A DNA stretch of 64,000 nt, taken from positions 23,175 to 87,174 of the forward strand of contig CAZQKI010000001.1 in NCBI GenBank assembly GCA_964592855.1. The letters are read 5' to 3'. Source of the stretch: an uncultured Lentisphaerales bacterium (GTDB taxonomy: Bacteria; Verrucomicrobiota; Kiritimatiellia; RFP12; JAAYLN01). Made by a program: the position numbers and the translations under genes. This document shows, piece after piece, positions 8,663 to 64,000 of this stretch. The notes under the pieces are model-generated. The model did no database searches and was not told the origin of the DNA. It worked only from the letters and a program-made list of their open reading frames with translations. Position 1 is the first letter of the stretch. Each line of letters opens with the position of its first letter.

Positions 8663-8691
8663 GCAACATGGATTCGTGGCCAACTGGCGGC

Positions 8692-26178: not shown

Positions 26179-26190
26179 AGATTTCTCCCG

Positions 26191-27543: not shown

Positions 27544-27544
27544 G

Positions 27545-44326: not shown

Positions 44327-45814
44327 TCACACGGGAGGCCCAGCCTCCGCGGGGGCTGCACCACCGGAAGAAACACCCTCGCCGTCAGGTGCCCGGCGCG
44401 CGTGCCGGCGTCCGCCGCGGCGCTTGCGTCTGCGGTTGTGCCCGGCAGGGGCGTCGCCCTCCGTTTGCCCGCCCTCCGCCGCTTCGGCGGGTGCGTCGTC
44501 GCGGACGACTTGTTCAGGCGTTTCCGCGTCAGGATCATCCGGGTGCGGACGCGGGTGACGACGGGGGTTTTCGCTCGGGTGGTCGGCGTGATGGTGAACC
44601 GCGGGCATCAGCGCCTGCCAGACATCCAGAATATGCATGGACTCGCCCGTCAACGCCAAACGGATGCGGGCCAGGCACAGCGCATCGGCGAACTCCGCCG
44701 CGCGCCCCGCGCGGATCCGCCGGCCGGGGGCCGGCATCGCACTGAAGCGCTGCTGGTCGTCCAGCAGATGCACGGCGTGGAAGTAAATGGCTTTGGGCAC
44801 CTTGAAGCGGGTGTTGAAATCCTCCAGGCACCGCTCGGCAATCTCCAGCTGGTTGATGTTCCGCGCGTCGGCCTTCCGGGCGGTTTCGACGGCCGCCTGG
44901 AAAATCGGATACGCCAGCACGGCGAGGTGCAGTCCGTTCGAAAAGTCCCCGCCGGCCCGCCGCTCCAGTTCGTCCATCTGGGCGAGATAGCTCCAGAGGG
45001 GCGACTTCTCCTTGCCGGACTGCTTGACGTAGCGGTCGAGATGGGGCATCAGGGCTGCCATCATGCGCGTCTCCCAGAGCAGCTTGAACGTCTTGGCGGA
45101 GGCGTTGAAGCCGAAGAGGCGGAAGATCTCTTCCAGTACGCGGGCGTCCGAGGCCTGCGCAATCTCCTGGTGATGGGTGCAGATGGCGCGATAGGTCTTC
45201 TTTTCGATAGTCAGGTCGAGGCGCGCCGCCAGGCGGACGGCCCGCATCATCCGTACGGGATCTTCACGGAAGCGGACGTTGGGATCGCCGATGGCCCGCA
45301 GCGTCCGCTGATCCAGATCGTGCAATCCACCGACATAATCGATGATGTCAAAGCTCTTGATGTCGTAGAAGAGACCATTGACGGTGAAGTCGCGTCGCTT
45401 CGCATCCTCCTCCGGGGTGCCGAAGGTGTTGTCGCTGTTCTGGTAGAGGGCGCCCGGAGCATTCTCGTCCGCAACCGTCACGGTTTCGTCGGGTTGTTTG
45501 CGGAAGGTGCTGGTTTCGATGACCTGGTTGCCGAAAATAACATGCGCCAGGCGGAAGCGGCGGCCGATGAGAAAGCAGTTGCGGAAGAGCCGCTTGATTT
45601 CCCGGGGTTGGGCGTCGGTACTGACGTCGAAGTCCTTGGGCTGCCGGCCCAGCAGGAGGTCGCGGACGCTGCCGCCGACCAGATAGCCTTTGAATCCGGC
45701 CTCATTGAGGCGGTAAAGCACCTTGAGCGCTTCGGGCGCGATGTTCTTGCGTGAAATAGGATGTTCGGCGCGTGGCCGGATGACAACCTGTTTGGGTTTT
45801 CGGAAAAATAGCAT
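44327..45814 (-). CDS. pcnB: Poly(A) polymerase I / tRNA nucleotidyltransferase-family protein
   Basis: ..GYLVGGSVRDLLLGRQPKDFDVSTDAQP.. head domain of the polymerase-beta nucleotidyltransferase superfamily; about 495 aa with a basic Arg-rich C-terminal tail typical of PcnB. Confidence 0.8.
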   Translation of the reverse strand: MLFFRKPKQVVIRPRAEHPISRKNIAPEALKVLYRLNEAGFKGYLVGGSVRDLLLGRQPKDFDVSTDAQPREIKRLFRNCFLIGRRFRLAHVIFGNQVIETSTFRKQPDETVTVADENAPGALYQNSDNTFGTPEEDAKRRDFTVNGLFYDIKSFDIIDYVGGLHDLDQRTLRAIGDPNVRFREDPVRMMRAVRLAARLDLTIEKKTYRAICTHHQEIAQASDARVLEEIFRLFGFNASAKTFKLLWETRMMAALMPHLDRYVKQSGKEKSPLWSYLAQMDELERRAGGDFSNGLHLAVLAYPIFQAAVETARKADARNINQLEIAERCLEDFNTRFKVPKAIYFHAVHLLDDQQRFSAMPAPGRRIRAGRAAEFADALCLARIRLALTGESMHILDVWQALMPAVHHHADHPSENPRRHPRPHPDDPDAETPEQVVRDDAPAEAAEGGQTEGDAPAGHNRRRKRRGGRRHARRAPDGEGVSSGGAAPAEAGPPV

Positions 45815-46024
45815 GATTGAAGGAGAGTCAAACCGTGTTAAGCGATGCCAGGACAAGAAAGATGTCCCTGGCAAAATGTGCAGACATAATAGAGCAGGGG
45901 CGCGGAAGGATCAAGAAGCGATTTTTTGCGATTGCATGAACTGCAAATGATCTTGCTCCGCCATCCGGGTATCATGCTATAGTCGTAGCGCCAAAATTGG
46001 CATGGGATAGTAGCGAGCAATTGC

Positions 46025-47044
46025 ATGGTAATTGATCATTTTCTGGCAGTCGACGCGGGGGGGACTAAATGCGAGGCGCTCCTGATGACGGCGCAGGGGG
46101 AGGCCATCGCCTTCCACGTCGTATACCCCGGTCAGGTTTCCGTGACCGGTGACTATGGGCGCGGGCGCGATTCAGCCGCATCGCTGGCGGCCATTCAAGG
46201 TGTGTTGCGGACGGCAAATCCAGCCGGGGTGATCCATTTCGTGACCGGCAACGGCGCCATGACGCATGACTTCCGGCACACCCTGAAGGCGCGTCGCGTC
46301 ACCTTGTGGCATGCCGCTGAGGCGGAGGCGGCGCAGGCCTGGGCCGGGGTCGAAGACGCGCTGGTGGCTTTGTCGGGCACCGGTGCGTTCGGCCATCTTT
46401 GCCTGGCCGGACAGAACTGGCACGCCGATGGTCTCGGCCCCCTGATGGGCGACTGGGGCGGCGCCTACCAGATCGGCCGGGAGGGCCTGCGCACCGCGTT
46501 GCGCGCCAAGGGTCCCCCCAGTCTCAATGCGGCACTGCGTGGCGCGCTGGCGCGCGAGATGGGCCTCCTCGAAGACTCAGGGCAATTGCAGAACATGATG
46601 ATCCGCGAGGGGATCCGGATCTTTGCGGACCGGACGGCGGTGGCGCATTATGCGGGGATGGTGGACCGGACGGCGCGTGCGGGCGATGCGGCGGCGGTCG
46701 GCATCCTCGAAACGGCCGCCGCTGACCTGGCGGAAACGCTGCGTTCCCTGGTCGAGCAGGCCGGCGTCGCAACGGCTGTTGCTCTGCCATTCATCGGTAC
46801 CGGTGGCGTGATTTACGGTTCGGACATCTACTGGAATCGTCTGGTGCAGTGCGTCTCAACCTTCCTGCCCAATATTCGGCCCCTGCGGCAGAATTTACCG
46901 CAGGCTGCCGGGTTGGCGCTGACAGGGTTGTGCCAGGCGGTCCACGCGGGCGAAGTGAAAGCGGATGTGGCGCGCGTCAGAGAACGGCTCTGCGCGACGC
47001 TGCCCGCCCTGTTGCAGGCATCGGATGGAAAGGGATCAAAATGA
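46025..47044 (+). CDS. BadF/BadG/BcrA/BcrD-type ATPase (N-acetylglucosamine-kinase-like sugar kinase)
   Basis: N-terminal phosphate-1 motif LAVDAGGTK; ASKHA fold length (339 aa); first gene of a five-gene operon with ATGA overlap into the next gene. Confidence 0.75.
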   Translation: MVIDHFLAVDAGGTKCEALLMTAQGEAIAFHVVYPGQVSVTGDYGRGRDSAASLAAIQGVLRTANPAGVIHFVTGNGAMTHDFRHTLKARRVTLWHAAEAEAAQAWAGVEDALVALSGTGAFGHLCLAGQNWHADGLGPLMGDWGGAYQIGREGLRTALRAKGPPSLNAALRGALAREMGLLEDSGQLQNMMIREGIRIFADRTAVAHYAGMVDRTARAGDAAAVGILETAAADLAETLRSLVEQAGVATAVALPFIGTGGVIYGSDIYWNRLVQCVSTFLPNIRPLRQNLPQAAGLALTGLCQAVHAGEVKADVARVRERLCATLPALLQASDGKGSK

Positions 47045-47784
47045 CGGCGGCATTGGATTATCTGAATACGGTCCGGGGTGTCCTGGATCATTACGAACGC
47101 ACCCAGTTGACGAACGTCGAGCGGGCGGCCGCGCTGGTCGCGGACAGCGTGTTGAACGGAGGCACGGTGCATCTGGCGGCCATCGGACACAGCAACGAGC
47201 AGGATTTCATCAACCGCGCCGGCGGGCCGGCCTTTCTGCAGCCGCTGAGTTTTTCGCTGACCCTCAATGACCCGGTTGCCGATTGTCTGAAGGCGCGGCC
47301 CCGGCCGGAGCCCTTCGACCGCGAGGTTGAGACGGTCCGGCTGGCGCTGAAGGCCGGCAACCTGCGTTCCGGCGACATCGTGGCCGTGGGCTCGGTGTCC
47401 GGCCGCAACGTCCGACCCGTCGCCATCGCGCTGACCTGCCGTGAAATGGGCATCCGGACCATCGCCTTCACCGCGCTCGCCTACACGGGCAAGGTGGACT
47501 CCGCACATCCCTCCGGCAAGAAACTGGCCGAGGTGGCCGATGTGGTGATCGACAGCGGCGCACCCTATGGCGACGCGGCCGTGACGATACCGGGCTACGA
47601 CATCGCACTCCTGCCGGTCTCGGGAGCATCGATGGTGGTGGGCGGCTGGCTGGTCTGGGGGCGGGCACTGGAACTGATGGCCGCGAAGGGCAAGCCGGCA
47701 TCGGCATTCATGAGCGTGAACCGTCCGGATGGACAGGACTACTACAACAAAAGCCTGGCGCGCTATCAGCAGCTGGGCTATTAG
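47041..47784 (+). CDS. SIS-domain sugar-phosphate isomerase-like protein 1
   Basis: 247 aa; SIS motifs (..GGTVHLAAIGHS.., ..GDIVAVGSVSGRN..); paralogous to the next gene. Confidence 0.7.
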   Translation: MTAALDYLNTVRGVLDHYERTQLTNVERAAALVADSVLNGGTVHLAAIGHSNEQDFINRAGGPAFLQPLSFSLTLNDPVADCLKARPRPEPFDREVETVRLALKAGNLRSGDIVAVGSVSGRNVRPVAIALTCREMGIRTIAFTALAYTGKVDSAHPSGKKLAEVADVVIDSGAPYGDAAVTIPGYDIALLPVSGASMVVGGWLVWGRALELMAAKGKPASAFMSVNRPDGQDYYNKSLARYQQLGY

Positions 47785-47798
47785 CACAGGAGCGCACC

Positions 47799-48539
47799 AT
47801 GTCTGCGGATGTCTATTTTAAAGAAGCGGCGGCGGCCTTGGCTCGCGTGGCGGAGACCCAGCGCGACGCGATCAGCAAGGCCGCCGGCTTGATGGTGGAT
47901 GCCATCCTGGCGGATCGGTGCCTCTTTTCCTTCGGCGCCACGCATTCATTCATTCTCACCGAGGAGCTGGTCTACCGCACCGGCGGACTCATGCTGATCA
48001 ATCCGATCTACCCGCACGGCATGAACCTGTCGGTGCGCCCCATGACCCAGACCTCGCGATTCGAACGCATCCCGGGGCTGGGCGCGGAACTGCTGGCGGG
48101 AACGCCGGCGAAGCGGGGCGACGTGCTGATCCTCGCCTCCACGTCGGGACGCAACGCCGTCACGATCGACATGGCGCTTGCGGCGCGGGAAAAAGGCCTT
48201 CGGACGATCGGCATTACGGCCATGGCTTACACGCTGGCGGTCGCCAGCCGCCATTCGTCCGGCAAAAAACTGGTCGACCTGTGCGATGTGGTGATCGACA
48301 ACGGCGCACCCTATGGCGACGCCGCCGTGGACATCCCGGGTTTTCCGCAGAAGGTGGGCCCCCTGTCCTCGCTGACCGGAATCGCGATCGTCAACGCCCT
48401 GGCGGCCGAGACGGCAGCGCGGCTCATGGCGGCAAATGTCACCCCGCCGGTCTTCATGAGCGCCAATGTGGACGGCGGCGACGCGCACAACGCCGCACAA
48501 CTCAAGGCCAATGCGCACCGCATCCACTACATGAGCTGA
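47799..48539 (+). CDS. SIS-domain sugar-phosphate isomerase-like protein 2
   Basis: 246 aa; ..RCLFSFGATHS.., ..GDVLILASTSGRN..; shares the ..SGKKL.(E/D).(A/C)DVVID.GAPYGDAAV.IPG.. block with SIS-1. Confidence 0.7.
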   Translation: MSADVYFKEAAAALARVAETQRDAISKAAGLMVDAILADRCLFSFGATHSFILTEELVYRTGGLMLINPIYPHGMNLSVRPMTQTSRFERIPGLGAELLAGTPAKRGDVLILASTSGRNAVTIDMALAAREKGLRTIGITAMAYTLAVASRHSSGKKLVDLCDVVIDNGAPYGDAAVDIPGFPQKVGPLSSLTGIAIVNALAAETAARLMAANVTPPVFMSANVDGGDAHNAAQLKANAHRIHYMS

Positions 48540-48683
48540 GCGCGCTCTTTTGGAATGTCCTTTTGGGCTTGACGCTGGGCCGCGGCTCAATTACGGTTGT
48601 CGGCTCGCGGGCATGCTCCGTCACGGTGACGGTGGGTGCTTTCGCATGGAATCAGCGTGCGCGCGGAAAAAGAGAAGGCAATC

Positions 48684-49526
48684 ATGAAGTCTTTCAAGAT
48701 CGGTGTCATGTCGGATGGTTTTCGCCTCCCTCCTCTGGAGGGTATTCGAAAGGCCGCTGAAATCGGCGCGCAGGGCGTCCAAATCTACACCGTCCGCGGA
48801 CCCATGGGGCCCGATGAGATGACGGTGGCGAGGCGCGCCGAGCTGCGCAAGCTGGTCGCCGACCTGGGCATGGTGATTTCCGCGTTGTGCGGCGACCTGG
48901 GCGGCGGTTTCCGCGATGCCGCGAAGAACCCCGAGAAGGTTGCGCTCTCGAAGCGCATCGTCGATCTGGCCGCCGATGTCGGCACGACCGTCGTGACCAC
49001 CCACATCGGCGTAACCCCCGAAGACCGCACCTGCCCGACCTACAAGACCATGCTGGCGGCGTGCCGCGAGCTGGCCGACTATGCCGCGAGCCGGAAAGTC
49101 ACCTTTGCCGTCGAAACCGGCCCGGAGACGGCCTCCGTGCTCAAGCAGTTTCTCGATGACATCGACAGCAAGGGCCTGGGCGTCAACCTGGATCCGGCGA
49201 ACCTGGTCATGGTTTCGGGCGACGACCCCGTGGCGGCGGTGCACACGCTCAAAAAGTACATCGTCCACACCCATGCGAAGGACGGCATTCAAATCAAGCC
49301 CGGCAGCGTCGAGGCGGTCTACCATGGCGCCGCGGCCAGCTCACAGCCCGCCGCCAAGTTCAAGGAAGTCCCCCTCGGCGAAGGCCAGGTCGACTGGCCC
49401 CGCTACCTCGATGCGCTGGAGCAGATCGGCTACAAGGGATTCCTGACGATCGAGCGCGAAGTCGGCGCCAATCCCGCGGCGGACATCGCCAAGGCGATCG
49501 AGTTCCTGCGCGCGAAGATCGCCTAG
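48684..49526 (+). CDS. Sugar phosphate isomerase/epimerase (xylose-isomerase-like TIM barrel)
   Basis: ATG at 48684 (agagaagg RBS); ..AVETGPE.., ..NLDPANLVM.., ..HTHAKDG.. TIM-barrel metal-site pattern. Confidence 0.75.
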   Translation: MKSFKIGVMSDGFRLPPLEGIRKAAEIGAQGVQIYTVRGPMGPDEMTVARRAELRKLVADLGMVISALCGDLGGGFRDAAKNPEKVALSKRIVDLAADVGTTVVTTHIGVTPEDRTCPTYKTMLAACRELADYAASRKVTFAVETGPETASVLKQFLDDIDSKGLGVNLDPANLVMVSGDDPVAAVHTLKKYIVHTHAKDGIQIKPGSVEAVYHGAAASSQPAAKFKEVPLGEGQVDWPRYLDALEQIGYKGFLTIEREVGANPAADIAKAIEFLRAKIA

Positions 49527-49585
49527 TTGCGACGCCAGGCCCGGTCGGTCGGCTCTGCTTGTTTCCGTCATCATTGGGGAGTATC

Positions 49586-50584
49586 ATGACATCCAGGGAT
49601 ATCATTCGCCACACGCTGGAGTATTCGGGACCGGAGCGGGTCGCCCGGTCGTTTGGCGACTCGGACTTCCGCGGTGCCGGCTGTACCGTCAAGACCCATG
49701 CCACAGAATGGCAGGAGGTCGGCGGCGGACGCTGGGAGCGGATCGACGAGTGGGGCAACACCTGGGCGCGTCTCGAATCGACTTCGAAAGGCGAGGTGGT
49801 CAAGGGCGTCCTCGCCAGCATGGACGACGCACGCACGTACCGGTTTCCCGATTACTCGAATCCCGCCGACTACGCCGTCGCCGTGGAGAACCGGGCCAAG
49901 TTCGCCGACAAGTGGCTGATCGGCAGCATGCCCGGCTTCACCTTCAACATCGCCCGGAAAATGCGGAAACTGGACCAGTATCTCGTGGACCTCCTGCTGG
50001 AGCCGGAGGCGATGCATGCCTTCCATGACCGGATCGATGTGCTGCTGGGGGACATGATCCGCAACTACGCGGCCGCCGGCGTCGATGCCGTCATGTTCCC
50101 CGAGGACTGGGGCACCCAGACGCAGACGCTCGTCAGCCCCGACTTGTGGTGCGAGGAGTTCTTCCCCCGCTTCGTCAAGCTGTGCGGCCTGGCCCACGAC
50201 CTCGGCATCAAGGTGTTCATGCACTCCTGCGGACAGATCGAGGCGATCGTCCCGGGGCTGATGGAGGCCGGCATCGACCTGCTGCAGTTCGACCAGCCCG
50301 ACCTCCATGGCATCGACATCCTGGCCGGGCATCAGGAGCGGGGCAAGATCACCTTCTGGTGTCCGGTCGACATTCAGAAGACCCTGCAGCAGCGCGACGA
50401 GCAGGTGATCCGCGCCAAGGTCCGGGAGATGCTCGACAAGCTCTGGCGCGGCCGGGGTGGGTTCATTGCGGGCTTTTACGGCGACAATGTCTCGATCGGC
50501 CTTGATCCGAAGTGGCAGGAAATCGCCTGCGATGAGTTCACGAAGGTCGGGCTAGCCGCGAATTACGTGGAACGTGATGCGTGA
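49586..50584 (+). CDS. URO-D/MtaA-like family protein, paralogue 3
   Basis: 332 aa from the ATG at 49586; URO-D-family pattern (..AGVDAVMFPEDWGTQ.., ..HSCGQIEAIVPGLMEAGIDLLQFDQP..); last gene of the kinase-SIS-SIS-TIM operon. Confidence 0.8.
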   Translation: MTSRDIIRHTLEYSGPERVARSFGDSDFRGAGCTVKTHATEWQEVGGGRWERIDEWGNTWARLESTSKGEVVKGVLASMDDARTYRFPDYSNPADYAVAVENRAKFADKWLIGSMPGFTFNIARKMRKLDQYLVDLLLEPEAMHAFHDRIDVLLGDMIRNYAAAGVDAVMFPEDWGTQTQTLVSPDLWCEEFFPRFVKLCGLAHDLGIKVFMHSCGQIEAIVPGLMEAGIDLLQFDQPDLHGIDILAGHQERGKITFWCPVDIQKTLQQRDEQVIRAKVREMLDKLWRGRGGFIAGFYGDNVSIGLDPKWQEIACDEFTKVGLAANYVERDA

Positions 50585-50627: not shown

Positions 50628-51845
50628 TCAATCAATGGTCGCAAGAAATCCCGGGGCCAGCCTCGCCGCGAAAACCTGCGGGATGCCGTGCGGGGCGGAG
50701 TTGTAGATCACGTAGCGGTTGTCGGCGGTCAGATAGGGGTGCGTGTGCGTGCATTGGTTGCCGCCTCCCACACACCCGACATCCTCGACCAGGGTCCGGA
50801 ATTTGCCGTTCTCAAGATTGCCGATCACCAGCGAGGCCGGCTTGCTCTGGCCGTTCTCGAACAGACCCGTTCCGGTGTGTGAATCGGCGATGAAGTAGCG
50901 TCCGCACCGCGACGCGCTGATGTGGTTGAACCGGTGCTGGGGCGCCTCGAACACCGTCGGCTTGCGGTCGCCCGGCTTCGCCGTGAACAGGTTGCCTTGC
51001 GGATGCAGCGGACTGTGCCGCCAGTCGTACTGGCTGTGATGAACCCACCCGGCTGAGAACAGGACGCGCCCCGTGTCGGCGACGAAGCATTCATGCCCGG
51101 TGACGCCGTGCGTGACCGGGGGGCCCGCCGGAACGAAGCGCTGGTTCCTGCCGTCCTGATCAATCACGAACAGCTTGCACCCCGCCGTCTGGTAGGCGTC
51201 CCGCGAGCCGTCCTTCTTCAGCCGGATGCCGGCGTTGTTCTGCACGAGGATCTGCCGGCCGTGCACGGGGTTGAACTGCAGATGCGGGTTGCAGATCTCG
51301 GGATGCTCGAAGATCACCTCGCGGATCTTCTTCTCGAGGTCGAGGCGGAGGATCTGGAACACCGGCGCCCCTTTGCCTTTTAAACGGGGGTTCATCCAGA
51401 TCATGTAGCGTTGATCGGGCGAGATGGAACTGCCGCCGCCGCCGACCGGAAGGGGGGCGTCCGGATCATCCTCGGCATAGACTTCCTTCTGCTCCAGTGT
51501 CATCAGCGAGAGCTGCATCAGCCGCCGCTCGGGCGTCCAGTAGTACATCAGGCCGCTCCACGCGGAGGTGCAGACGGTCCGCACGCCCATGGCCCGCCGC
51601 ACGACCATCGTGATGGCCAGCCGGTCCAACTCGTGCACGAGCAGCGCACCCTCCGTGTCCCAGCAGAAATCCTGGCAGCGGGCGATGATGATCCGCTTGC
51701 CGTCGGGCGAGGTGTAGGGCTGCTCCCCGTAGATGTTGTTGCTGATCGCGGCCGCGCTGGTCAGCTGCTGGATCCGCGCGCCGCTGACGGGATCGTCCCG
51801 CAGGTCGGCCGATTCGTGTGCCCATTGGATTGGCTGGTTGCTCAT
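50628..51845 (-). CDS. Oligogalacturonate lyase-like (PL22-like) beta-propeller protein
   Basis: About 405 aa; TolB-like propeller pattern with an N-terminal ..RIQQLTS..NNIYGEQPYTSPDGKRIIIAR.. resembling PL22 Ogl; start provisionally at MSNQPIQW (51845) to avoid overlap with the giant gene stop. Confidence 0.5.
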   Translation of the reverse strand: MSNQPIQWAHESADLRDDPVSGARIQQLTSAAAISNNIYGEQPYTSPDGKRIIIARCQDFCWDTEGALLVHELDRLAITMVVRRAMGVRTVCTSAWSGLMYYWTPERRLMQLSLMTLEQKEVYAEDDPDAPLPVGGGGSSISPDQRYMIWMNPRLKGKGAPVFQILRLDLEKKIREVIFEHPEICNPHLQFNPVHGRQILVQNNAGIRLKKDGSRDAYQTAGCKLFVIDQDGRNQRFVPAGPPVTHGVTGHECFVADTGRVLFSAGWVHHSQYDWRHSPLHPQGNLFTAKPGDRKPTVFEAPQHRFNHISASRCGRYFIADSHTGTGLFENGQSKPASLVIGNLENGKFRTLVEDVGCVGGGNQCTHTHPYLTADNRYVIYNSAPHGIPQVFAARLAPGFLATID

Positions 51846-51864
51846 ATTCCCCGCTTGCCGCAGA

Positions 51865-54800
51865 CTACTTTTCCGCGAATTTGTCATGTGTGATCAGTTC
51901 AAACGCCCGGGAAGGCTTGGATTCCCGTTTCTCGGCATTCACCGTCGTCATAAATAGATACATCTTCGTCTCTGGCCGCAGCCCCGTGATCGACTGGTTG
52001 TCCTTCAAGCCCTTGGCCAGAAGGTCGGCGCCGCGTCCGTCCGCATACCGGCTGAGATAAAGGTTGTAGGTCAACGCCGGGTCTTGATCGAACCGGATCA
52101 GCATGTTCCGTCCGTCGTTGAAGTGCTGTGGCTCCTCGAACCGCTTGATCGCCGGCGCGTTCCCCATCCCTTCGGCGGAGAGCCGGGCGATCGGATTCTC
52201 CGACGGGCCCGTCCACTCGGGCATTGGCGTGCGAAGGCGGCTCGTGGCAACAGCCGGGTCGGCGGCCTGTTCTTCCGACGCATACTCTGCGACCAGGCCG
52301 GCCAGCGTGTAGCTACGTTCCTTCACGAGCTGCATGACGCCAAGCACCGGCACTTCGTTGCGGGCCTCGACGATGATCTTCTCCAGCTTCAATGGCAGAT
52401 CGACCGCGCCATCGCCACCCCGCGAACCCCACCAGGTGGTCTCCAGGTCGCGCGCACCGTCCCCGGGCTTGCTGCCGGGCAGCGGAAAACGCACGTAACG
52501 CCAGCCATCGAAGCTCACGTACGACCAGGCATGGGTGTCGTCGCAGTTCCAGTCGTTGCGGGTGCCCACGGATGTCCAGACTTCGCCCTTGGCGTCGCGG
52601 CACTGGTACACGATACGGCCCCACGAGGAATTGCCTTTGATCCAGACCCCCAGCGCCTCGGCCTTGCCGGGGATCGTGACGGGCTTCTTCAACTTCAACT
52701 GTCCGTAGCGCGTGGCCATCGGCCGGTCGCCCGGTTCGACGGGCAGCGTGACGGCCACCGCATCGGCATGTCCCGCCTCGCCCGGGCCGAACTCGGCTTT
52801 CAAGTTCGGGTCCGTGATCCGCCGCATCGCAAAATGATTCTCCGCATACTCCTTGTCAGCCGATCCGTCGTAGACCCACTGCCCGGCGGTGAAGGGGGCC
52901 AGCGGACGCGTGACCGCGGCGGGCGCCTCGGTGTACCGCGACGGCGCGAGCGTGATCGCTTCGATCACTCCGGCCCCCGTGAGCCAGACCGGCAGGGAGG
53001 TGAGCGTGATCGTGAAGGCGCCTTCCTTGACGGGGCAGGGGACGGCATTGCCCATGGAGTCGGTGACGACCGGCCGGGCCCCGTTCATCGTGACCGTCGC
53101 CTCGCTGGTGCCGTTGACCCGCCACATGGCGTAGATCATCGCCTGATCCGCTGTCCGCTTGAATGCCAGGCAATAGGCCGTCAGGGATCCGGTGTCCACC
53201 GGGCCGACGACATCGGCGCCGCAGAGCATGGCGGTGGCGGTGGCCACGGCGGCCACGGCCGGCTTCGGATTCTCCAGGGGCCGGCGATGGAAGATGCCGG
53301 CGCCGTAGTGCTCGGCCCCGTAGTAGTTCCCGGCGTCCTGCGGCACAATGCCGGCCTCGAACTGCTCGACCCCGTAAGCCAGCGCAAGAAGCGTGTAGCG
53401 GATCTGGTACTCGGCCTGCTCACGCTCGGTCAGTGCTCCGGGCTGCGTGGGAAAAAACGGCCCTTCGCACCAGGCAATCGGCAGGTTCGGCCAGCCCAGC
53501 TTGGCGGCTTGCTGACGCAACGCCCACAGCAGATTGATCGACCCGGTGACGTTGGAAATCTCTGGCAGCAGCTCGAATTGCGGCGCGTCCATGCCGTATA
53601 GGTCGACCAGCTCCTTCGGCATGCCGGCGCGCATGTAGGCGATCGTCCCCTGCGGCGCTCCCCATTGCAGGACCAGCCGGGTTTCGGGACGCTTCGCACG
53701 GACACCCTTGCCGATGGCCGTGAAGATCTTCACGTGCCGCCCGGCATTGGCCTGCTCGATGTCGGTCAGCCCCCGGTCGCCTTCGTCCGTGTAGGCCGGC
53801 CACGGCGCGTACTGCACCGCTTCGCTGATGGCCCACTCGCCGCCGTAGAAGTAGGAAGTGCCGGTGAAATTGGAGGCGATGCTGGCTACTTCGCCGGCAA
53901 CGGCCTCCGCCATGGCCGCGCCATCCACGGTGCCGTCCGGCAAGACCGTCTTGCTGAACTGGTTGCCGACCGTATGGGGTCCGTTGGGGATGAAATCCAG
54001 CCGCTTGAGCAAGCCGGCATTGACAAAAGATTCATGTAGGCTGGTGCGGCGCAGCCCGAGGCGGCGGTACAACGCCAGCGTCCGCTCGTTCGCTGCAAGA
54101 TCGCCGGCCTTCATCGCGGCGTAGTGGCCGAACAGTTCCCAGATGCCAAAGCGTGTTTCATTGGCCGCGTTTCCATACGTGCGGCGGTTGGGCGGCAACA
54201 CGACCAGGCTCAGATCGGCTTCGCGCTTGACGCCGGCCCCTTCGACCTCGACCTTGAGCCCGTGCCAGCCCAATGTCTTCAGGTCGAACGTCAGCGCGAC
54301 GTTCTCCGCCCGGCCGGGCTGGACAACGGCACTCGCCTTGACGGTACGCGTTTCGGTCCCGTCATAGCTGCTCGATGTCACCCGGACCTCCGCCTGGATG
54401 GCCTTTGTCGTCGTATTGGTCACGGCGATGTCCAGAACCGGCTTTTCGGGGCTTTCAAACACAAAATGCGTCTGCCGGGGCGTGACCTGGAAACCGAAGG
54501 GCGCCTCCTCCAGCGTGATCCCGACGATGTGCAGCGAACTGGGAAGCCCGGCGGGATGGTAGCCGTAGTAGATCGGGTCCGGGTAGCTACGGCCCAGTTC
54601 GACCGGCTTGCTCAGTTCGAACTCCAGGAACTGGTCGGCCATGTCGCGCATGCCGTACAACCCCGCCGTGTTCACCGGCACCCGGATCAGATAGAGCGGC
54701 TTGCCGTCCGCCGTCTGCTTCGCCAGCTTCTTCACAAGGCCTTTGCGAATGGCCTCGTCGGTGATCTCCAGATCGGTGCTGGTGGGAAAACCCGCATGCT

Positions 54801-55839
54801 CCTTGAAAAACCGCAGCGTGCCTCTGGGTACCGTGTCGGGCCGTGCCTCGCTCCAGGCCAGCAGCCAGATGTTCTGGTAGTTCCGGTACGGCACGCGGAA
54901 GGTCAGCGAAGCGGGGTCGGCCTGAAATGAACCGGGCCAGGAACACTGGCCGTTCACATACCCGACATCGGGGCCGCTGCCATGGGTGAGTCGGTAGCGG
55001 TAGAGCGAATCGCCGAGGTTGATGTCGGGTGTCCCCGTTTTCGGCAGACGCAGGGGAATCGACTCCACCGTCTCTAGCGTGCTCGCGGGCCGGGCCGCCT
55101 GCGCCTGGCGGGCGTGGCTGTAGGCCTCGAGCGGCAGGGGGAGGAAGCGGCCGTGGTCCGGCGGTGCGGAGAATCCGGCCGAGAGCAGGCTGGCCGTCCC
55201 GGTGAGTTGAACCACCCACCGCACCGGATGCTCCGCGGCGATCCGCTCCTCCGCCACCAGCCGGTCATCCAGCCAGATCTGGCGCGTGTCCCGGGTCAGC
55301 GTCATCCGTACCGTAAACACCTTCTCCGCGAACGGCACGCACGCGGCGTAGGCCGAGCCGATCTCCCGGAGGTCGCGTTCGTCCCAGAGGTTCTTCACTT
55401 TCGGGAACCGCCAGCGATAGGCGATCGCGCCGCCCTTGTCGTCCGGCGTTCCCCAGAATCGGCTGGAGACCGCATCGGTTGCCATGAGTCGCCCCGCCGC
55501 GTTCGCCCGGACGGACGCCTGATTGGGGCCGGTTGGCCGGAACACGCACTCCAACAGCGGCTTGGGCTCATTTGTCGGCCCGACCGCACGGAGCGTGAGT
55601 AGATCGCCATCCGCGGCACGGAGGCGGAAGACCGCCTCGACCGGCAACGGCATTGCCACCTTCGTCTGGAGTTCAAGCGGTGCGCCCCCCTTCGCCTGGA
55701 CAACACGACCCGTTTCGGTCTGGCCTTTGACGACGGTCCATCCCTCCGGCGCGAAGGTGTTCTCAAACGATGGCGGCGCCGCAGGAATGGCCGTAGCCAC
55801 CAATGCCGCTGCAAGTCCGATAATCAAGCGCACGTTCAT
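51865..55839 (-). CDS. Very large secreted protein (about 1324 aa) of unknown function, paralogue A; C-terminal FN3-like module
   Basis: Start trimmed to MNVRLIIGLAAALVATAIPAAPP (ATG at 55837-55839 with aggaga RBS). Shares conserved blocks with the 56398 gene (..SLYRYRL../..SLYRYRM..; ..GYHPAGLPSSLHIVGITLEEAP../..GYQAGGLPSSVRIYGLTLEEAP..). Confidence 0.75.
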   Translation of the reverse strand: MNVRLIIGLAAALVATAIPAAPPSFENTFAPEGWTVVKGQTETGRVVQAKGGAPLELQTKVAMPLPVEAVFRLRAADGDLLTLRAVGPTNEPKPLLECVFRPTGPNQASVRANAAGRLMATDAVSSRFWGTPDDKGGAIAYRWRFPKVKNLWDERDLREIGSAYAACVPFAEKVFTVRMTLTRDTRQIWLDDRLVAEERIAAEHPVRWVVQLTGTASLLSAGFSAPPDHGRFLPLPLEAYSHARQAQAARPASTLETVESIPLRLPKTGTPDINLGDSLYRYRLTHGSGPDVGYVNGQCSWPGSFQADPASLTFRVPYRNYQNIWLLAWSEARPDTVPRGTLRFFKEHAGFPTSTDLEITDEAIRKGLVKKLAKQTADGKPLYLIRVPVNTAGLYGMRDMADQFLEFELSKPVELGRSYPDPIYYGYHPAGLPSSLHIVGITLEEAPFGFQVTPRQTHFVFESPEKPVLDIAVTNTTTKAIQAEVRVTSSSYDGTETRTVKASAVVQPGRAENVALTFDLKTLGWHGLKVEVEGAGVKREADLSLVVLPPNRRTYGNAANETRFGIWELFGHYAAMKAGDLAANERTLALYRRLGLRRTSLHESFVNAGLLKRLDFIPNGPHTVGNQFSKTVLPDGTVDGAAMAEAVAGEVASIASNFTGTSYFYGGEWAISEAVQYAPWPAYTDEGDRGLTDIEQANAGRHVKIFTAIGKGVRAKRPETRLVLQWGAPQGTIAYMRAGMPKELVDLYGMDAPQFELLPEISNVTGSINLLWALRQQAAKLGWPNLPIAWCEGPFFPTQPGALTEREQAEYQIRYTLLALAYGVEQFEAGIVPQDAGNYYGAEHYGAGIFHRRPLENPKPAVAAVATATAMLCGADVVGPVDTGSLTAYCLAFKRTADQAMIYAMWRVNGTSEATVTMNGARPVVTDSMGNAVPCPVKEGAFTITLTSLPVWLTGAGVIEAITLAPSRYTEAPAAVTRPLAPFTAGQWVYDGSADKEYAENHFAMRRITDPNLKAEFGPGEAGHADAVAVTLPVEPGDRPMATRYGQLKLKKPVTIPGKAEALGVWIKGNSSWGRIVYQCRDAKGEVWTSVGTRNDWNCDDTHAWSYVSFDGWRYVRFPLPGSKPGDGARDLETTWWGSRGGDGAVDLPLKLEKIIVEARNEVPVLGVMQLVKERSYTLAGLVAEYASEEQAADPAVATSRLRTPMPEWTGPSENPIARLSAEGMGNAPAIKRFEEPQHFNDGRNMLIRFDQDPALTYNLYLSRYADGRGADLLAKGLKDNQSITGLRPETKMYLFMTTVNAEKRESKPSRAFELITHDKFAEK

Positions 55840-56022
55840 GTCAAGGGTTCTCCTCTTGGACGATCCGGCCCCGGCCCGCGCCGGCGAGGTCGCAATTTCG
55901 TGTCGGGACGATGCGGTCGAAAAAATTGTCGACCGGAAAAACTCATACAGTATGCTGAATTGCAGCCGGGTCGTCAATCTGCGCGGCAAAAAAGACGCGT
56001 CAACTTCGTTGCCACGCCCCAA

Positions 56023-56397: not shown

Positions 56398-59300
56398 ATG
56401 ATACGCAGGACGACGACGATTGCAGGGTATGCCTTGATGGCGGGATTGGCCGCGTTCGCCGCGGAACGCCGCGCGCCGGTGGCCGCGCTGCCGATGGAGC
56501 CGGCCGCCGTGAGCGAAGCCTGGGTGGTCAACGATGAAACCAGCACCTTCGCCCTGGGCGTGATCCGCGACGACCTGCTGGCCCGCCCGGTGTTGGAGGT
56601 CGCGTCGCGCAACCTCGACACGCGCGCGGTGCGCAACAAACAGCATGAATACCGGCTCACCTCCCGGGCGACCGCCAAGGGCGCTTACGTCGTCGAGGCG
56701 CTGCTGCGGTTTCCCGATCTGCCGCGGCTGGATGAGCGCGGACGCCCGGTGCGAGCCCGACCCCGTGCCAGCCTGTCGGTCGGATTGCTCACCAACGACC
56801 TGCCCGCCTTTGTCCTGGAGGGGGGGACGGGCGTTTCGCCGCTGTTCATCTGGTCGGTGAAGCGTGGCGACGACCCGCCGAAGGCGAAGCCGGTTTCCGG
56901 GAGCCTGAAGGCGAATGTCACGCCCGACATCTCGCCGCTCTCGCCAGAAGCGTTCCGGTTGGAATCGGAAGCCGAACTGGCCCGCATGCCCCGGCCGGAG
57001 AACTGCTGGATTCCGGTGCGCATCGAGGTCGGTGCCTCCCACCTGCGCTTTTACTTCAACGGCTGCCTGGCGCTGGAACGGCTGCGTGAAGCCGGTACCG
57101 ACGGCCCCGTCACGCTGACCCTGCGCGACCGCGTCCGCATCGCCTCGCTGGAGGTGCGCCCGCTGCCCGGCGACAACGCCCCCTTCGTCACCGTCCCGCT
57201 CGACTCCCGCTGCAATGCCGCGGCGACGCTCGCCTCAGACGCCCTGGCTGCCGTCCGCCAGACCGGCGCCGTACACGGTGTCCCCTTTGTGTTCCCGGCC
57301 ACCGTGCCGTTTGACCACGTCGACGTCGGGCAGAGCCTCTACCGCTACCGGATGGGCACCTCCTATACCGCCGACTACGATCCCCGCATCACCGCGCCCA
57401 GCCCCGCCGAGTTCGAGCCGGGGCGCATCCTGCTGACCGTGCCGAAACGCGCCTACCGGCGGGCCTGGCTGCTGGCCGGCGCCGACGGCCGGGAACACCA
57501 CGTGCCGCTGGTCACGCTGCGCTTCTACAAGCCGTTCACCGGTTGGTCCACCGACACCGCGGTGACGGTCCCCGCCTTCGCATCCAGAGATGGCGGGACG
57601 GCCAAGCCCGTCGCGGTGCGGGATGCCGCCGGCCAGGCGGTGAACCTCTGGCTGGTTCCGGTCGATCTCGACGCTGCGGCACTGGCCGCCGACTTCACCG
57701 GCGATGTGATGCACATCGAACTGACCAAGGCGGTCAAGCCGAACCTCGCCTATCCCGATCCCGCGAACTACGGCTACCAGGCCGGAGGACTGCCGAGTAG
57801 CGTGCGCATCTACGGCCTCACGCTTGAGGAGGCGCCGGTGCAGGCCGTCGCCTCGGGCGACTTGTTCGGCAACACCTACACTGACCCCGAGCAACTGGTC
57901 TGGCAGGTCACGGTACAAAATCGGACGGCCGACACGCTTCCCGTCGAAATCACGGTCGCGGCCACCGATCCCTACGGACTAGCCGCCGCGCCGACGGTCA
58001 AGCGGCTGGCGCTCAAGCCGGGCGAGACGCAGGTGCCGGCCTTTCCCTTGAAGCCCGCCGTCCTGGGCCTCCATGCGGTTCGCACCACCGTCAAGGCCGG
58101 CGACTGGAGCCAATCCCGCGAGGGTTACTTCCTGCGCCTCCCGGCCTTCGCCCGCCGCGAGACCGGCGTCACCAGCCCCTGGGGCGTGTGGAACTGGGGC
58201 GGCACGCACGCCACGCATGGCGACCTCGACGACAACGGCCGGCTGCTGAAGGCTGTCGGCGCCATCAACAATCACGATCTGACGGCGTCGCCCGCCCGCG
58301 GCCAGCCCGCCGTCAATCTCAACGAGTTCAGGAAAAAATGGGGGCTGGGGGCGACGCATGACCGCATCATTCCGCGCGATCCGCCACTCTGGGCCGCCAA
58401 GGATCCGGTCGATCCGGCCGAGCGCGAAGCCTACAAGGAGGTGATCGGAAAACGGGCCCGGCAGTTGAAGGACGACCATCCCGACTTCCAGTACGTCAAC
58501 TGCTTCGCCGAGAATTCCGTCTCGCTTCGCTTGACCCATGGCGTCCGCGCCTCGGCCTTCGGCCTGCCGGAATACGAATTCAACGAGAAGGAACTGGCCC
58601 GCTTGCGCCACCTGCTGACCGCCGCACTGGCGGGGGCCGAGGGCGTTCGCCAATACGCTCCCGAGGTCAAGTTCATCTTCGGGCACGGCGCCGCCAATTT
58701 CGCATGGCCCTTCTTCACGCAGCCGGACTGGAACTTCGACCTCTTCGCCGGCATCGGACTCGATCTGCCGCAGTTCGAGCGGATGCCGGAACGCCAGCCG
58801 CGCGCGACCGAGCCGAGCCTCCTCTATTTTCTCCGGGAGGAACTGAAGGCGCGCGGCCAGATCGACAAGGAACTCGTCCATCTCGAATCCTACTTCCCGG
58901 GAAGCCACGAACTGGCGCTGGGACTCCGGGGACAGGCCGACAGCATCGTCCGCACTGCAGTCCTCTCCCTGGCGCTGGGCACGACCAAGTTCATGCATAC
59001 GTGGAGCCTGCAGGACTGCGCCGACCGCTGGGGCAGCCAGCACTACGGCGGATGCGGGCTCTACGCCCGCATCCCGGAGAGCAATCCCAAGCCCGCCGCG
59101 GCCGCCTTCGCCACGATGACCCGCGTGCTGGACCGGGCCCGCTTCGACGGCTGGATCGATACGGGCAGCCTCAGCACGTTCTGCATCCGCTTCAAGGGCG
59201 AAGACCGGCTGGTCTACGCCGTCTGGACCATCCGCGGCACGCGTCCGCTGGAGGTCGTCGTGAACGCCGGGTCGGCCGGGATTGAACGGATTGATGATAA

Positions 59301-62930: not shown

Positions 62931-64000
62931 CTACCCCATTGGTGTCGCGGCCTGGCACAGGCGGTACATGGCGAGCAAGGGCGCATGGCCCAGATAATCG
63001 CGGCAGGGGCCGGTGGGGGAGCCCTTGCGGCCCAGGGGTTCGATGGCCGCGCCCGTGGAGTTGTAAAACTCGAAGATGTGTCCGTAGGTCTGGAAGGCTT
63101 CCGCCGACCGCTTGAGCGCTTGCTGCCCGATCGTCGCCGCCGCGTCGGTGAACCCGTAATCGGCCAGGGCGCGCATGATCCAGTAGGTCATGGAGTTCCA
63201 CGCCGGACCGCGCCAGCAGTCGAGCTTGAAGGTCGCTTCGTTGACCGCGACCGTGGCCAGTGGGTGATAGCTGAAGAAGGTGCGCGGATCGAGCGCATGG
63301 TCGCGGAGGCGGCGGGCCTGTTCCGGGGTGGCCAGATGCGCCAGCAGCGGGAAGAACCCTTCGAAACTGAAGATGGGTTTCACACGCCCGTCAGTCATCC
63401 ATGTGTCGAAGAAGAAACCGAGCCGCTCATCCCACATCGTGTTCCGGACCAGGCTCTCCGCCGCCCGGATGTCCCCCCGCAGATCGACGGTGGGATCGCC
63501 CAGGGTGTCAGCCCAGCGCTGCAGGTGAATCATCATGCCCGCCAGGTGGCTCGTGGCGTCGACACAGGCGCAGGGCTCGGCCGGCGCCTGGATGAAGCGG
63601 ACGCCGTCATCCACGCCGCTTTCCCACAGCCGCCGGACGATATCGAAGTAGAAGAACCCGCCATCGGGCGTGCCCCGCCGGCTTTTCCACCAGGCCAGGT
63701 TCTTCAGCCCCTGCTTCAGACAAAAGGCCAAAAAGGTCCGGTCCTTCGTCTGCGCATAGTAGTCTTCGACCAGATGCGGCCAGAGCGGCGGATGCGACCA
63801 CTGGCGCGACCAATGGCAGCCGTCCCGCTCGTACCAGAGCGCCGGATCCCACGTCTGGTTGGCGCCCAGGGCTTTCGGCCCGTAGACGGTTCCCGGCATC
63901 TGGCCGTCCTCCCCGATGAATGACAGGTACATCTTGAGTTGCTGCCGGACCATCTCCGGGGCGTATGGGAGGAGATTGAGGCATTCATGGATCAGGTCCC
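62931..64000 (-). CDS. Six-hairpin (alpha/alpha)6 glycosidase, GH63/GH37-like; N-terminus beyond the window end
   Basis: ..LDCWRGPAWNSMTYWIMRAL.. and overall (alpha/alpha)6-barrel pattern; the frame remains open upstream of the first in-window Met (manual translation to position 64000 shows no stop). Confidence 0.65.
   Translation of the reverse strand, partial: DLIHECLNLLPYAPEMVRQQLKMYLSFIGEDGQMPGTVYGPKALGANQTWDPALWYERDGCHWSRQWSHPPLWPHLVEDYYAQTKDRTFLAFCLKQGLKNLAWWKSRRGTPDGGFFYFDIVRRLWESGVDDGVRFIQAPAEPCACVDATSHLAGMMIHLQRWADTLGDPTVDLRGDIRAAESLVRNTMWDERLGFFFDTWMTDGRVKPIFSFEGFFPLLAHLATPEQARRLRDHALDPRTFFSYHPLATVAVNEATFKLDCWRGPAWNSMTYWIMRALADYGFTDAAATIGQQALKRSAEAFQTYGHIFEFYNSTGAAIEPLGRKGSPTGPCRDYLGHAPLLAMYRLCQAATPMG

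Follow-up and report, generated by a model that had tools for sequence, protein, structure and literature searches.

A kinase-SIS-SIS gene trio and a neighbouring TIM-barrel/URO-D-like gene pair are probably separable units in an uncultured Lentisphaerales bacterium

NagS of Streptomyces (SCO4393; PDB 9EOL, 9F7O and 9F7V), a member of the UPF0309/NF002805 family with a single SIS_2 fold of ~250 aa, was described in 2025 as a GlcNAc-6-phosphate dehydratase (PMC12680351). It is a homodimer with active sites at the interface, to which one chain contributes H53, S91, E94 and D179 and the other chain R64 and N228 (PMC12680351). NagS orthologues are defined by at least 58.7% identity, and non-Streptomycetaceae homologues that are 26–36% identical to NagS lack the dehydratase activity (PMC12680351). 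BH3325 of Bacillus halodurans (PDB 3CVJ, ‘putative phosphoheptose isomerase’) is a structural-genomics member of the same family, without an assigned function. In murTKQ of Tannerella forsythia, a PF01869 kinase is followed by a single-domain SIS etherase that acts on the resulting 6-phosphate (PMC5790795). The SIS fold also occurs in the isomerase domain of GlmS and in AgaS, FrlB and NagB-II, which carry two PF01380 domains per chain with one site and perform aldose-ketose or deaminase chemistry on amino-sugar phosphates. The UroD superfamily, which includes HemE, MtaA/MtbA/CmuA, MetE and epoxyalkane:CoM transferase, has a (β/α)8 fold (PMC10418091).

We analysed a 64,000-nt stretch of DNA (the window) from an uncultured Lentisphaerales bacterium, in which a first-pass annotation had proposed that five adjacent genes form one sugar catabolic pathway. 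All five plus-strand ORFs are present, and profile searches (PF01869, PF13580 twice, PF01261 and PF01208) agreed with every domain that had been assigned to them. The features of the block are as follows.

45927..48547, + strand: 2,621-bp segment with the leader, kinase, SIS-1 and SIS-2, missing from the collinear contig L100
45927..46024, + strand: 98-bp leader upstream of the kinase, inside the same segment, with pcnB divergent upstream
46025–47044, + strand: BadF/BcrAD-family sugar kinase, 339 aa (PF01869, E 3.9e-15)
47041–47784, + strand: SIS-1, 247 aa (PF13580, E 1.2e-17; NCBIfam NF002805, 165.7 bits, cut-off 135)
47799–48539, + strand: SIS-2, 246 aa (PF13580, E 1.2e-37; NF002805, 288.2 bits)
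48548..48683, + strand: conserved non-coding region upstream of the TIM-barrel gene, 92% identical in L100
48684–49526, + strand: xylose-isomerase-like TIM barrel, 280 aa (PF01261, E 1e-40)
49586–50584, + strand: URO-D-superfamily protein, 332 aa (PF01208, E 2.3e-13, partial match)

The genes had been described as tightly packed, and this holds for the first three: the kinase and SIS-1 genes overlap in an ATGA (47041–47044), and the spacer between SIS-1 and SIS-2 is 14 nt and contains AGGAG. However, the range of 14 to 60 bp given for the remaining gaps does not fit that between SIS-2 and the TIM-barrel gene, which is 96 bp to a GTG at 48636 (giving a protein of 296 aa) or 144 bp to the ATG at 48684, the latter being preceded by the better ribosome-binding site (GAGAAGG). 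A further 59 bp separate the TIM-barrel gene from the URO-D-like ATG at 49586, for which a TTG at 49559 is an alternative start. We found no terminator-like site within the five-gene block; since none separates SIS-2 from the TIM-barrel gene, read-through co-transcription is possible in the strain of the window.

By their profile matches, SIS-1 and SIS-2 are single-domain SIS_2 proteins of the UPF0309/NagS family. They are 38% identical to each other, and thus paralogous as annotated; SIS-2 is a canonical member of the family and SIS-1 a divergent one. Among solved structures, NagS is closest to SIS-2 (9eol, E 3.4e-48), followed by BH3325 (3cvj, E 7e-44), whereas BH3325 is closest to SIS-1 (3cvj, E 2e-28; 9eol, E 2e-22) and has the same catalytic residues. 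The suggestion that the pair is a GlmS/AgaS/FrlB-type two-SIS enzyme split over two genes was rejected, because each protein is a full-length PF13580/NF002805 unit and not part of a PF01380 pair, which leaves a possible functional analogy to those enzymes. SIS-2 keeps all nine substrate-contacting or catalytic side-chain residues of NagS (H53, S54, R64, S91, E94, S119, S121, D179 and N228), as do 10 of 10 orthologues. In SIS-1, only S91 is lost from this set, position 94 being Asp or Glu; across 112 orthologues, the equivalents of H53, R64, S119, S121, D179 and N228 are invariant, Asp occupies position 94 in 54 and Glu in 50, and position 91 is Pro in 91.

Since the description of NagS, the family can no longer be called wholly uncharacterised, but homologues at this level of identity lacked NagS activity in that study (PMC12680351). 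SIS-2 is 40% identical to NagS, far under the level that defines NagS orthologues, and given the inactivity of distant homologues, the NagS reaction is not transferable to it. The locus also differs from that of NagS in lacking a dmdR1 neighbour and in encoding two tandem conserved paralogues with a kinase, where NagS and BH3325 are each a single gene. A dimer with interface-shared active sites is probably common to NagS, SIS-1 and SIS-2. The first-pass annotation had suggested that SIS-1 and SIS-2 may form a heterodimer. This is plausible, since both have the catalytic residues of NagS and always co-occur in the related loci examined. Each paralogue retains the residues of either half of the interface site, so that the sequences fit a heterodimer or two homodimers alike.

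The kinase, which carries a DAGGTK motif at its N-terminus, appears to be a distant NagK/MurK-like ASKHA kinase. It scores only 37 bits against NCBIfam NagK_SO3507 (cut-off 370), and the solved structures most closely related to it are those of MurNAc/GlcNAc kinase 8zo3 and hexokinase 2e2n. The combination of kinase and SIS genes does resemble MurK/MurQ, as had been noted, and C2-proton removal, the first chemical step there, would also be expected for the trio. We considered whether the trio is a non-orthologous replacement of MurK/MurQ for cell-wall sugar recycling, in which MurNAc-6-phosphate formed by the kinase would lose its 3-O-lactyl ether to the SIS pair through elimination and hydration. 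Apart from the kinase match and the gene layout shared with murTKQ (PMC5790795), this reading draws on the published phylogeny, in which NagS is related to MurQ, on the three serines that bind phosphate in NagS as in MurQ (PMC12680351), and on the frequent location of the trio among housekeeping genes (thyA, DFP), which would fit recycling. However, the kinase matches 8zo3 only weakly and over part of its length (E 9e-7, residues 100–294) and is only remotely MurK-like; neither SIS protein, both of the SIS_2/NagS type, matched a MurQ family model at E ≤ 0.01 in the NCBIfam search; no MurNAc or other transporter adjoins the trio; and a single MurQ-type protein is enough elsewhere, which leaves two conserved paralogues unexplained. 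We consider a role as MurK/MurQ replacement unlikely.

The order kinase, SIS-1, SIS-2 is common to 12 related loci examined from Lentisphaerae-like bacteria, Armatimonadota and Chthonomonadales (seen in L087–L089, L091, L092, L094–L098 and L101; the contigs of L090 and L093 are too short for the whole trio to show). Identity across these loci is 54–75% for SIS-1, 64–86% for SIS-2 and 31–60% for the kinase, and the 4-nt overlap of kinase and SIS-1 recurs in L087, L088, L094–L096 and L098. We conclude that the trio is a widely conserved three-gene unit across distant lineages. Its surroundings vary: a YdjC-like deacetylase gene comes next in L092 and GH20 and DUF4838 genes in L096, four loci have a divergent GH2 gene upstream, and others adjoin thyA/DFP, GH78 or GH95. 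The YdjC-like, GH20/DUF4838 and GH2 neighbours may hint at amino sugars, but they are variable and confined to a few loci.

A direct view of how the block comes apart is given by L100, a contig that is ~92% identical to the window in DNA, lacks exactly 45927–48547 and keeps the TIM-barrel and URO-D-like genes. In blastn comparisons, L100:1–204 corresponds to 45723–45926 and L100:201–2225 to 48548–50584, with the junction within a short TTTT run; we found no flanking repeats or mobile-element signature at the segment. The equivalent of 48548..48683 directly follows the pcnB upstream region in L100. This region contains TTGACG-N17-TACGGT in addition to the ribosome-binding site ahead of ATG 48684, both as predicted sites, and is a probable independent promoter of the TIM-barrel and URO-D-like genes. 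The leader at 45927..46024 is presumed to be the promoter region of the trio; a sigma-70 consensus scan of it found no strong plus-strand site. The TIM-barrel protein is 98% identical in amino acids to its copy in L100, and dN/dS between window and L100 is 0.05 for the TIM-barrel gene and 0.23 for the URO-D-like gene, indicating that both are under purifying selection in L100.

The proposed five-gene route would run from phosphorylation through SIS conversion and TIM-barrel epimerisation or isomerisation to a step in which the URO-D-like enzyme takes a methyl or carboxyl group off a modified sugar, with all five genes in one operon. In its favour, the genes share a strand and a block free of terminator-like sites, and the layout is found on several contigs, although only on those with identical encoded proteins (L001–L003). 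The gene just ahead of the kinase likewise encodes a URO-D-superfamily protein in L088 (367 aa) and L094/L095 (357 aa), genes for a PF01261 TIM barrel and for a Gfo/Idh/MocA protein lie upstream of the trio in L092, and members of the two families are thus found close to the trio in 3 to 4 of ~8 lineages. However, these URO-D genes are dissimilar by BLAST to the window gene and to one another, and chance adjacency is not rare, given how common URO-D and PF01261 genes are in these genomes (of ~45 genes in the window, three are of the URO-D type). Moreover, the orthologues are not conserved together, whichever unit is taken as the starting point: 80 genomes have neither a kinase nor a SIS gene up to 10 kb away from the URO-D-like orthologue, none of 103 immediate neighbours of that orthologue encodes a SIS or BadF domain, and a window-type TIM-barrel or URO-D-like gene is absent from all 12 trio-carrying loci. 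Such absence had been named beforehand as refuting the pathway, and together with L100, in which the pair persists with its own conserved upstream region, it makes a single five-gene route improbable.

The URO-D-like protein shares the (β/α)8 fold of the UroD superfamily, and its AF2 model (pLDDT 92) has UROD, MtaA and MetE as best Foldseek matches (TM 0.55–0.66, 13–18% identity); no PDB entry was matched by sequence. As had been supposed, it is not a conventional HemE. PF01208 matches only its C-terminal half (residues 120–296, profile positions 147–322 of 346), the N-terminal region of HemE is replaced by a β-rich insert (residues 28–73), and the gene lacks a corrinoid partner or haem context. 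Its homologues number more than 1,300, with 69–92% identity among the top 120, and the clade, which has 488 occurrences in a collection of one genome per species, retains 52–92% identity across phyla. On these comparisons it is placed in a highly conserved, phylum-spanning and uncharacterised clade of its own, with an acidic, Trp-rich pocket and an FDSW-like E173-D174-W175-G. The URO-D genes that directly precede the kinase in L088 and L094/L095 belong to other subfamilies and may reflect a link at superfamily level.

At the end of a strand, the URO-D-like protein has an HxC motif resembling that of MtaA/MetE, which raises the question of whether it is an MtaA-type zinc-dependent methyltransferase that would act together with a corrinoid protein from another locus, for example in demethylating O-methylated sugars, a role that adjacency to sugar genes would reflect. 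The motif (H213-x-C215-G; H213-S-C215-G in the window protein) is kept in 92–99 of 101 family representatives and, aligned by eye, coincides with the HTCG of a neighbouring MtaA-like protein in L005. MtaA/CmuA models give weak matches, the Foldseek matches include MtaA 4ay7 and MetE zinc enzymes, and a Sumerlaeota orthologue adjoins genes for a corrinoid protein, a Met_synt_B12 reactivation domain, an S-methyltransferase, a second URO-D protein and an MFS transporter. However, MtaA/CmuA models are matched at only 23–35 bits (cut-offs 235–600; ~10% of the cut-off for MtaA), solved methyltransferases are unmatched at the sequence level, the candidate third ligand C259 occurs in only 49 of 101 relatives, and a B12-binding domain is found in 2 of 103 immediate neighbours and in none of the called genes of the window. 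We regard a methyltransferase of this type as doubtful. The TIM-barrel protein matches the NCBIfam models for L-ribulose-5-P 3-epimerase, IolE, IolO and psicose epimerase weakly, all far under their cut-offs, and its best solved relative is the uncharacterised protein 3tva.

We favour, with a probability of about 60%, a block of two separable units side by side rather than one pathway, the first combining a hexosamine-type kinase with a NagS-like pair. This first unit (46025–48539) would be a translationally coupled trio of a BadF/NagK-like kinase and two paralogous NagS-family SIS_2 proteins; the second (48548–50584) would comprise the TIM-barrel and URO-D-like genes with an upstream region of their own. 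The URO-D-like clade has no conserved gene neighbour, and its gene context and a GH38 fusion found within it place it loosely in glycan breakdown. As for the trio, the kinase would make a sugar 6-phosphate, most likely from an (N-acetyl)hexosamine-type sugar freed by nearby glycosidases. SIS-1 and SIS-2 would pair up as in NagS, probably as a heterodimer whose two interface active sites differ from each other, and this dimer would open the ring and take off the C2 proton. A C3 substituent may then be eliminated, by dehydration or by MurQ-like ether cleavage, or the sugar phosphate may be isomerised or deaminated.

At 46025-50584 the window carries five plus-strand ORFs with GC3 of the coding type. 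The first-pass annotation had read them as a candidate five-gene sugar catabolic pathway, and each of its five domain calls was borne out by Pfam and NCBIfam scans.

Genes of the five-gene block, with Pfam matches
46025-47044, plus strand: BadF-type kinase (PF01869, E 3.9e-15)
47041-47784, plus strand: SIS-1 (PF13580, E 1.2e-17)
47799-48539, plus strand: SIS-2 (PF13580, E 1.2e-37)
48684-49526, plus strand: TIM barrel, xylose-isomerase-like (PF01261, E 1e-40)
49586-50584, plus strand: URO-D-like protein (PF01208, E 2.3e-13, C-terminal half only; weak, sub-threshold MtaA/CmuA matches)

The 4-nt ATGA overlap between the kinase and SIS-1 genes is present in the sequence. Elsewhere in the block, gaps of 14 to 60 bp had been described; this holds for the 14-nt SIS-1/SIS-2 spacer, which contains an AGGAG, but the gap between SIS-2 and the TIM-barrel gene is larger: 144 bp if measured to the ATG at 48684, which has the better ribosome-binding site, and 96 bp if measured to a GTG. 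The block lies between a divergent pcnB on its 5′ side and a convergent gene for a 419-aa beta-propeller protein on its 3′ side. The TIM-barrel protein scored 140.5 bits against PF01261 (gathering score 31.1), which places it in the superfamily, and it came near the cut-off of no NCBIfam equivalog (best score 47 bits, cut-off 200). The kinase gene includes a 36-nt tandem direct repeat (46627-46698; copies 72% identical) that encodes a short duplicated peptide.

We examined co-conservation of the block from two ends, the URO-D-like gene and SIS-1, and the neighbourhoods of these two genes do not support a single five-gene pathway, since the orthologues are not co-conserved. In 80 URO-D-like loci, each covered for 10 kb on either side, tblastn gave no match to the window's kinase, SIS-1 or SIS-2, and only two weak matches to its TIM-barrel protein. 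Neighbour clustering and a Pfam census of 103 immediate URO-D-like neighbours likewise revealed no partner that is conserved; most frequent were another URO-D (6), ABC transporter (5) and SSF (4) genes, followed by GH78 (3), MFS (3), PF01261 (3), GH43 (2) and B12-binding (2). With a PF01261 gene adjacent in 3 of 103 cases, and only the two weak TIM-barrel matches in 80 loci, we rejected a conserved pairing of the TIM-barrel and URO-D-like genes beyond the closest relative.

Seen from SIS-1, whose orthologues are 54-81% identical, the picture is of a fixed trio. Every informative related locus (L087-L089, L091, L092, L094-L098 and L101) has its genes in the order kinase, SIS-1, SIS-2, and the 4-nt kinase/SIS-1 overlap recurs in six trio loci. 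None of these loci contains a TIM-barrel or URO-D gene of the window's type. The trio is usually followed on its 3′ side by thyA and a DFP flavoprotein gene, and its other neighbours include GH2, GH20/DUF4838, GH78, GH95 and YdjC-like deacetylase genes. A metagenome scan with SIS-1 as a single-sequence query yielded 4 loci, and an alignment-based query would reach further. We conclude that the conserved object is a three-gene unit of a kinase and paired NagS-like proteins, a variant of a recently described enzyme family, and that the link of the URO-D-like gene to the trio is specific to the window's strain. The practical value of this negative is that an adjacency in one strain had pointed to a pathway for which the comparative data give no support.

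A collinear contig that lacks the trio (L100, GCA_036681025.1) is approximately 92% identical to the window at the DNA level. Its positions 1-204 match window 45723-45926, comprising the start of pcnB and the region upstream of it, and its positions 201-2225 match window 48548-50584; the 2,621 bp absent from it (window 45927-48547) are exactly the trio and a 98-bp leader. The junction sits in a TTTT run. We found no mobile-element signature at this 2.6-kb indel, with no flanking direct or inverted repeats above chance, and insertion is indistinguishable from deletion. The contig retains the TIM-barrel and URO-D-like genes behind the same 136-bp non-coding region, with dN/dS values of 0.05 and 0.23, respectively, indicating purifying selection. 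Because both genes remain under purifying selection without the trio, we conclude that the trio and the TIM-barrel/URO-D-like pair can exist and function apart. A second indel relative to this contig, of 1.09 kb (window 50765-51854), falls inside the beta-propeller gene (50628-51887, minus strand), of which the contig encodes the last 49 residues only. The 419-aa product of the window's gene has only a weak match, to Pectate_lyase22 (oligogalacturonate lyase).

The alternative, that all five genes form one operon, is unlikely, although several observations are in its favour. We found no terminator-like site within the block; L092, a related trio locus, has a PF01261 gene upstream of the trio; and URO-D-superfamily genes unrelated to the window's lie between a GH2 gene and the trio kinase in L088 (5740-6843) and in L094 (3360-4433, equivalent to L095 5776-6849). 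These last genes, which come from different lineages, share one position between the kinase and a divergent GH2 beta-galactosidase gene, a position that is empty in L087; BLAST shows no similarity between them, nor between either and the window's gene. However, the window contains two more URO-D-family genes, so that in this genome it is not rare for a URO-D gene to lie next to any sugar gene.

Further URO-D-family genes of the window
515-1651, minus strand: second URO-D gene (PF01208, E 1.6e-21)
9380-10537, plus strand: third URO-D gene (PF01208, E 2.8e-10)

The gene at 515-1651 abuts a GH51 alpha-L-arabinofuranosidase gene (1652-3187) with zero gap, and has the HxCG, DD, D262 and Q264 motifs in common with the URO-D-like gene of the block. 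The URO-D family appears to have expanded in this genome and to be linked to glycoside hydrolases.

Both SIS proteins of the trio are members of NCBIfam NF002805 (UPF0309; cut-off 135), with scores of 165.7 bits for SIS-1 and 288.2 bits for SIS-2, and their closest solved relatives are NagS (SCO4393; 9EOL) and BH3325 (3CVJ). The two had been proposed to be a split form of the GlmS/AgaS/FrlB architecture. We found instead that each is a complete PF13580 SIS_2 unit of NF002805; whereas GlmS, AgaS and FrlB have two PF01380 SIS domains forming one site, SIS-1 and SIS-2 do not correspond to N- and C-terminal halves. Over their whole length the two share 38% identity; SIS-2 is 40% identical to NagS, and SIS-1 less so.

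A description published in 2025 identified NagS as a homodimeric GlcNAc-6-phosphate dehydratase with two sites at the interface, the product of its reaction being 6P-chromogen I (PMC12680351). Each site is built from His53, Ser54, Ser91, Glu94, Ser119, Ser121 and Asp179 of one chain and Arg64 and Asn228 of the other, and His53, Arg64, Glu94 and Asp179 are essential (PMC12680351). We read the conservation of these residues (NagS numbering) from a 125-sequence MAFFT alignment. SIS-2 and 10 of its 10 orthologues keep the NagS site residues, including H53, R64, S91, E94, D179 and N228. In SIS-1, H53, R64, both Ser residues, D179 and N228 are kept in 112/112 orthologues, position 91 is Pro in 91/112, and two residues are deleted after the H-S motif. 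Position 94, the placement of which depends on the alignment, is Asp (54 sequences, and the window's protein), Glu (50) or Asn (3). Given this retention of the NagS residue pattern, both paralogues look catalytically competent, with different sugar pockets. A catalytically dead SIS-1, suggested by an Arg at position 94 in a HMMER pairwise alignment, was dropped once the MAFFT alignment put a conserved Asp/Glu there, although this choice still depends on the alignment.

True NagS proteins have at least 58.7% identity to the S. coelicolor enzyme, synteny with dmdR1 and an origin in Streptomycetaceae, and three homologues at 26-36% identity were inactive or nearly so on GlcNAc-6P (PMC12680351). 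SIS-2 is not a strict NagS orthologue: in addition to its low identity, it has pcnB upstream and comes from a PVC-like organism. Given the identity threshold and the inactive homologues, we conclude that the NagS reaction is not transferable to the SIS pair.

The kinase has ASKHA motifs, with DAGGTK near the N-terminus. Its sequence points to no convincing orthologue among characterised kinases: it scored 37 bits against NagK_SO3507 (cut-off 370), and the solved structures closest to it are those of the MurNAc/GlcNAc kinase 8zo3 (E 9e-7, covering residues 100-294 only) and a hexokinase. In murTKQ of Tannerella forsythia, a PF01869 kinase gene adjoins that of a SIS etherase (PMC5790795), and the window's kinase gene similarly adjoins, and overlaps, SIS-1. 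We rejected assignment of the SIS proteins to the MurQ etherase family: they matched no MurQ model in NCBIfam at E <= 0.01, and a PDB sequence search with them returned only NagS, 3cvj and GmhA.

For the three-gene unit we propose that the kinase would make a sugar 6-phosphate, on which the SIS pair, probably as a heterodimer, would open the ring and remove the C2 proton, as NagS and MurQ do. The pair might then eliminate the C3 substituent, or isomerise or deaminate the sugar phosphate. A heterodimer is probable because the SIS-1 and SIS-2 genes always occur together in the loci seen. Some loci have YdjC-like deacetylase, GH20 or GH2 neighbours, which weakly indicate an (N-acetyl)hexosamine substrate. 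A more ambitious version is quite unlikely: that SIS-1 and SIS-2 form an obligate heterodimer with two chemically different sites, performing consecutive steps on a hexosamine-type 6-phosphate made by the kinase, for example 2,3-dehydration and then hydration or deamination, and that the recurrent URO-D genes beside the trio reflect a real modular link, with each URO-D-like enzyme stripping a different sugar modification (e.g. O-methyl) before or after the trio acts.

The clade to which the URO-D-like protein belongs is large, conserved and uncharacterised. Its homologues number more than 1,300, the top 120 at 69-92% identity, and an exhaustive representative search gave 4,128 clusters at E <= 1e-3, with 116 at E <= 1e-30. 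A scan of one genome per species located a relative at 488 places in PVC, Chloroflexota, Bacillota, Hydrogenedentota, Sumerlaeota, Planctomycetota and other phyla, with 52-75% identity across phyla. As had been surmised, it is not a conventional HemE: PF01208 covers only profile positions 147-322 of 346, there is no HemE among its NCBIfam matches, and its identity to solved HemE structures is 14-18%. Unlike HemE, it has neither a full-length model match nor the HemE N-terminal substrate-binding region, in place of which lies a beta-rich insert. Phmmer and profile searches gave no meaningful match to any PDB chain, and its AlphaFold2 model (pLDDT 92) matches HemE, MtaA and MetE at the fold level only (TM 0.55-0.66; 13-18% identity).

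Residues invariant in orthologues (own numbering) are E173-D174-W175-G, H213-S-C215-G, D231, D236, C259, D262, Q264 and D300. Among 101 wider relatives (28-55% identity), D174, H213, C215, G216, Q264, D27 and D262 persist, with H213 in 99/101 and C215 in 92/101; C259, the candidate third ligand of a possible His-x-Cys ... Cys zinc site like that of MtaA/CmuA enzymes, is kept in only 49/101. Neither this URO-D clade nor the trio turned up in our literature search, in which only the NagS and MurK work was relevant. Of the enzymes of anaerobic glycan degraders that lack an assigned function, this clade is one of the more strongly conserved.

Scores against the MtaA/CmuA models (35.1, 26.4, 24.0 and 22.9 bits) fell below all of the cut-offs (244, 235.4, 600 and 400, respectively), and we found no B12-binding domain among the window's called genes. 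With B12-binding in only 2 of the 103 neighbours, we rejected a general role for the protein in a corrinoid system. One locus is an exception, and the only clear corrinoid context seen: in a Candidatus Sumerlaeota contig (L005, JAFGJS010000158.1; 6530-12593), a 71%-identical orthologue lies in a full corrinoid methyltransferase set, with a B12-binding corrinoid protein, a Met_synt_B12 reactivation domain, an S-methyltransferase, a second MtaA-like URO-D and an MFS transporter.

One homologue from the exhaustive representative search (P0330, 1,323 aa) has the N- and C-terminal domains of a GH38 alpha-mannosidase followed by a URO-D-like domain at its C-terminus, which shares 31% identity with the window's protein. 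This candidate fusion, possibly a gene-calling artefact, may be a Rosetta-stone link to glycan processing. In L099 (JGI 3300044991; 6104-9323), from the same metagenome as the window's contigs, a 79%-identical gene runs 20 bp into the start of a 746-aa AXE1/glucuronoyl-esterase-like gene, and is preceded by DUF4838, Gfo/Idh/MocA and beta-helix genes with a sulfatase nearby, a different, polysaccharide-type context.

Elsewhere in the window, four large ORFs with GC3 of the coding type, at 51865-56022 (minus strand), 56398-60516 (plus), 5264-8662 (plus) and 60531-62165 (minus), encode proteins of 1,385, 1,372, 1,132 and 544 aa, respectively, none with a Pfam match at E <= 0.001. Glycoside hydrolase genes lie nearby, among them a GH63/MGH1-like gene at 62931-63953. 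Rnf complex genes at 23914-28333 (minus strand; RnfB-like, RnfC, RnfD and an Rnf-Nqr membrane subunit) indicate an anaerobic, ferredoxin-based energy metabolism in the source organism.

Once a reaction is assigned to the URO-D-like clade, many PVC, Chloroflexota, Bacillota and candidate-phylum genomes could be better annotated. The NagS family received its first assigned function only in 2025, in a study that found relatives outside Streptomycetaceae to lack activity on GlcNAc-6P; a kinase-coupled pair of NagS-like paralogues that is conserved in at least two phyla offers a concrete, testable system for the general role of the family. The SIS-1/SIS-2 pair would also test whether SIS_2 enzymes make asymmetric heterodimers. 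If the more ambitious version of the trio's mechanism were true, the unit would represent an undescribed amino-sugar entry route in Lentisphaerae-like and Armatimonadota bacteria, replacing NagA/NagB or MurQ.
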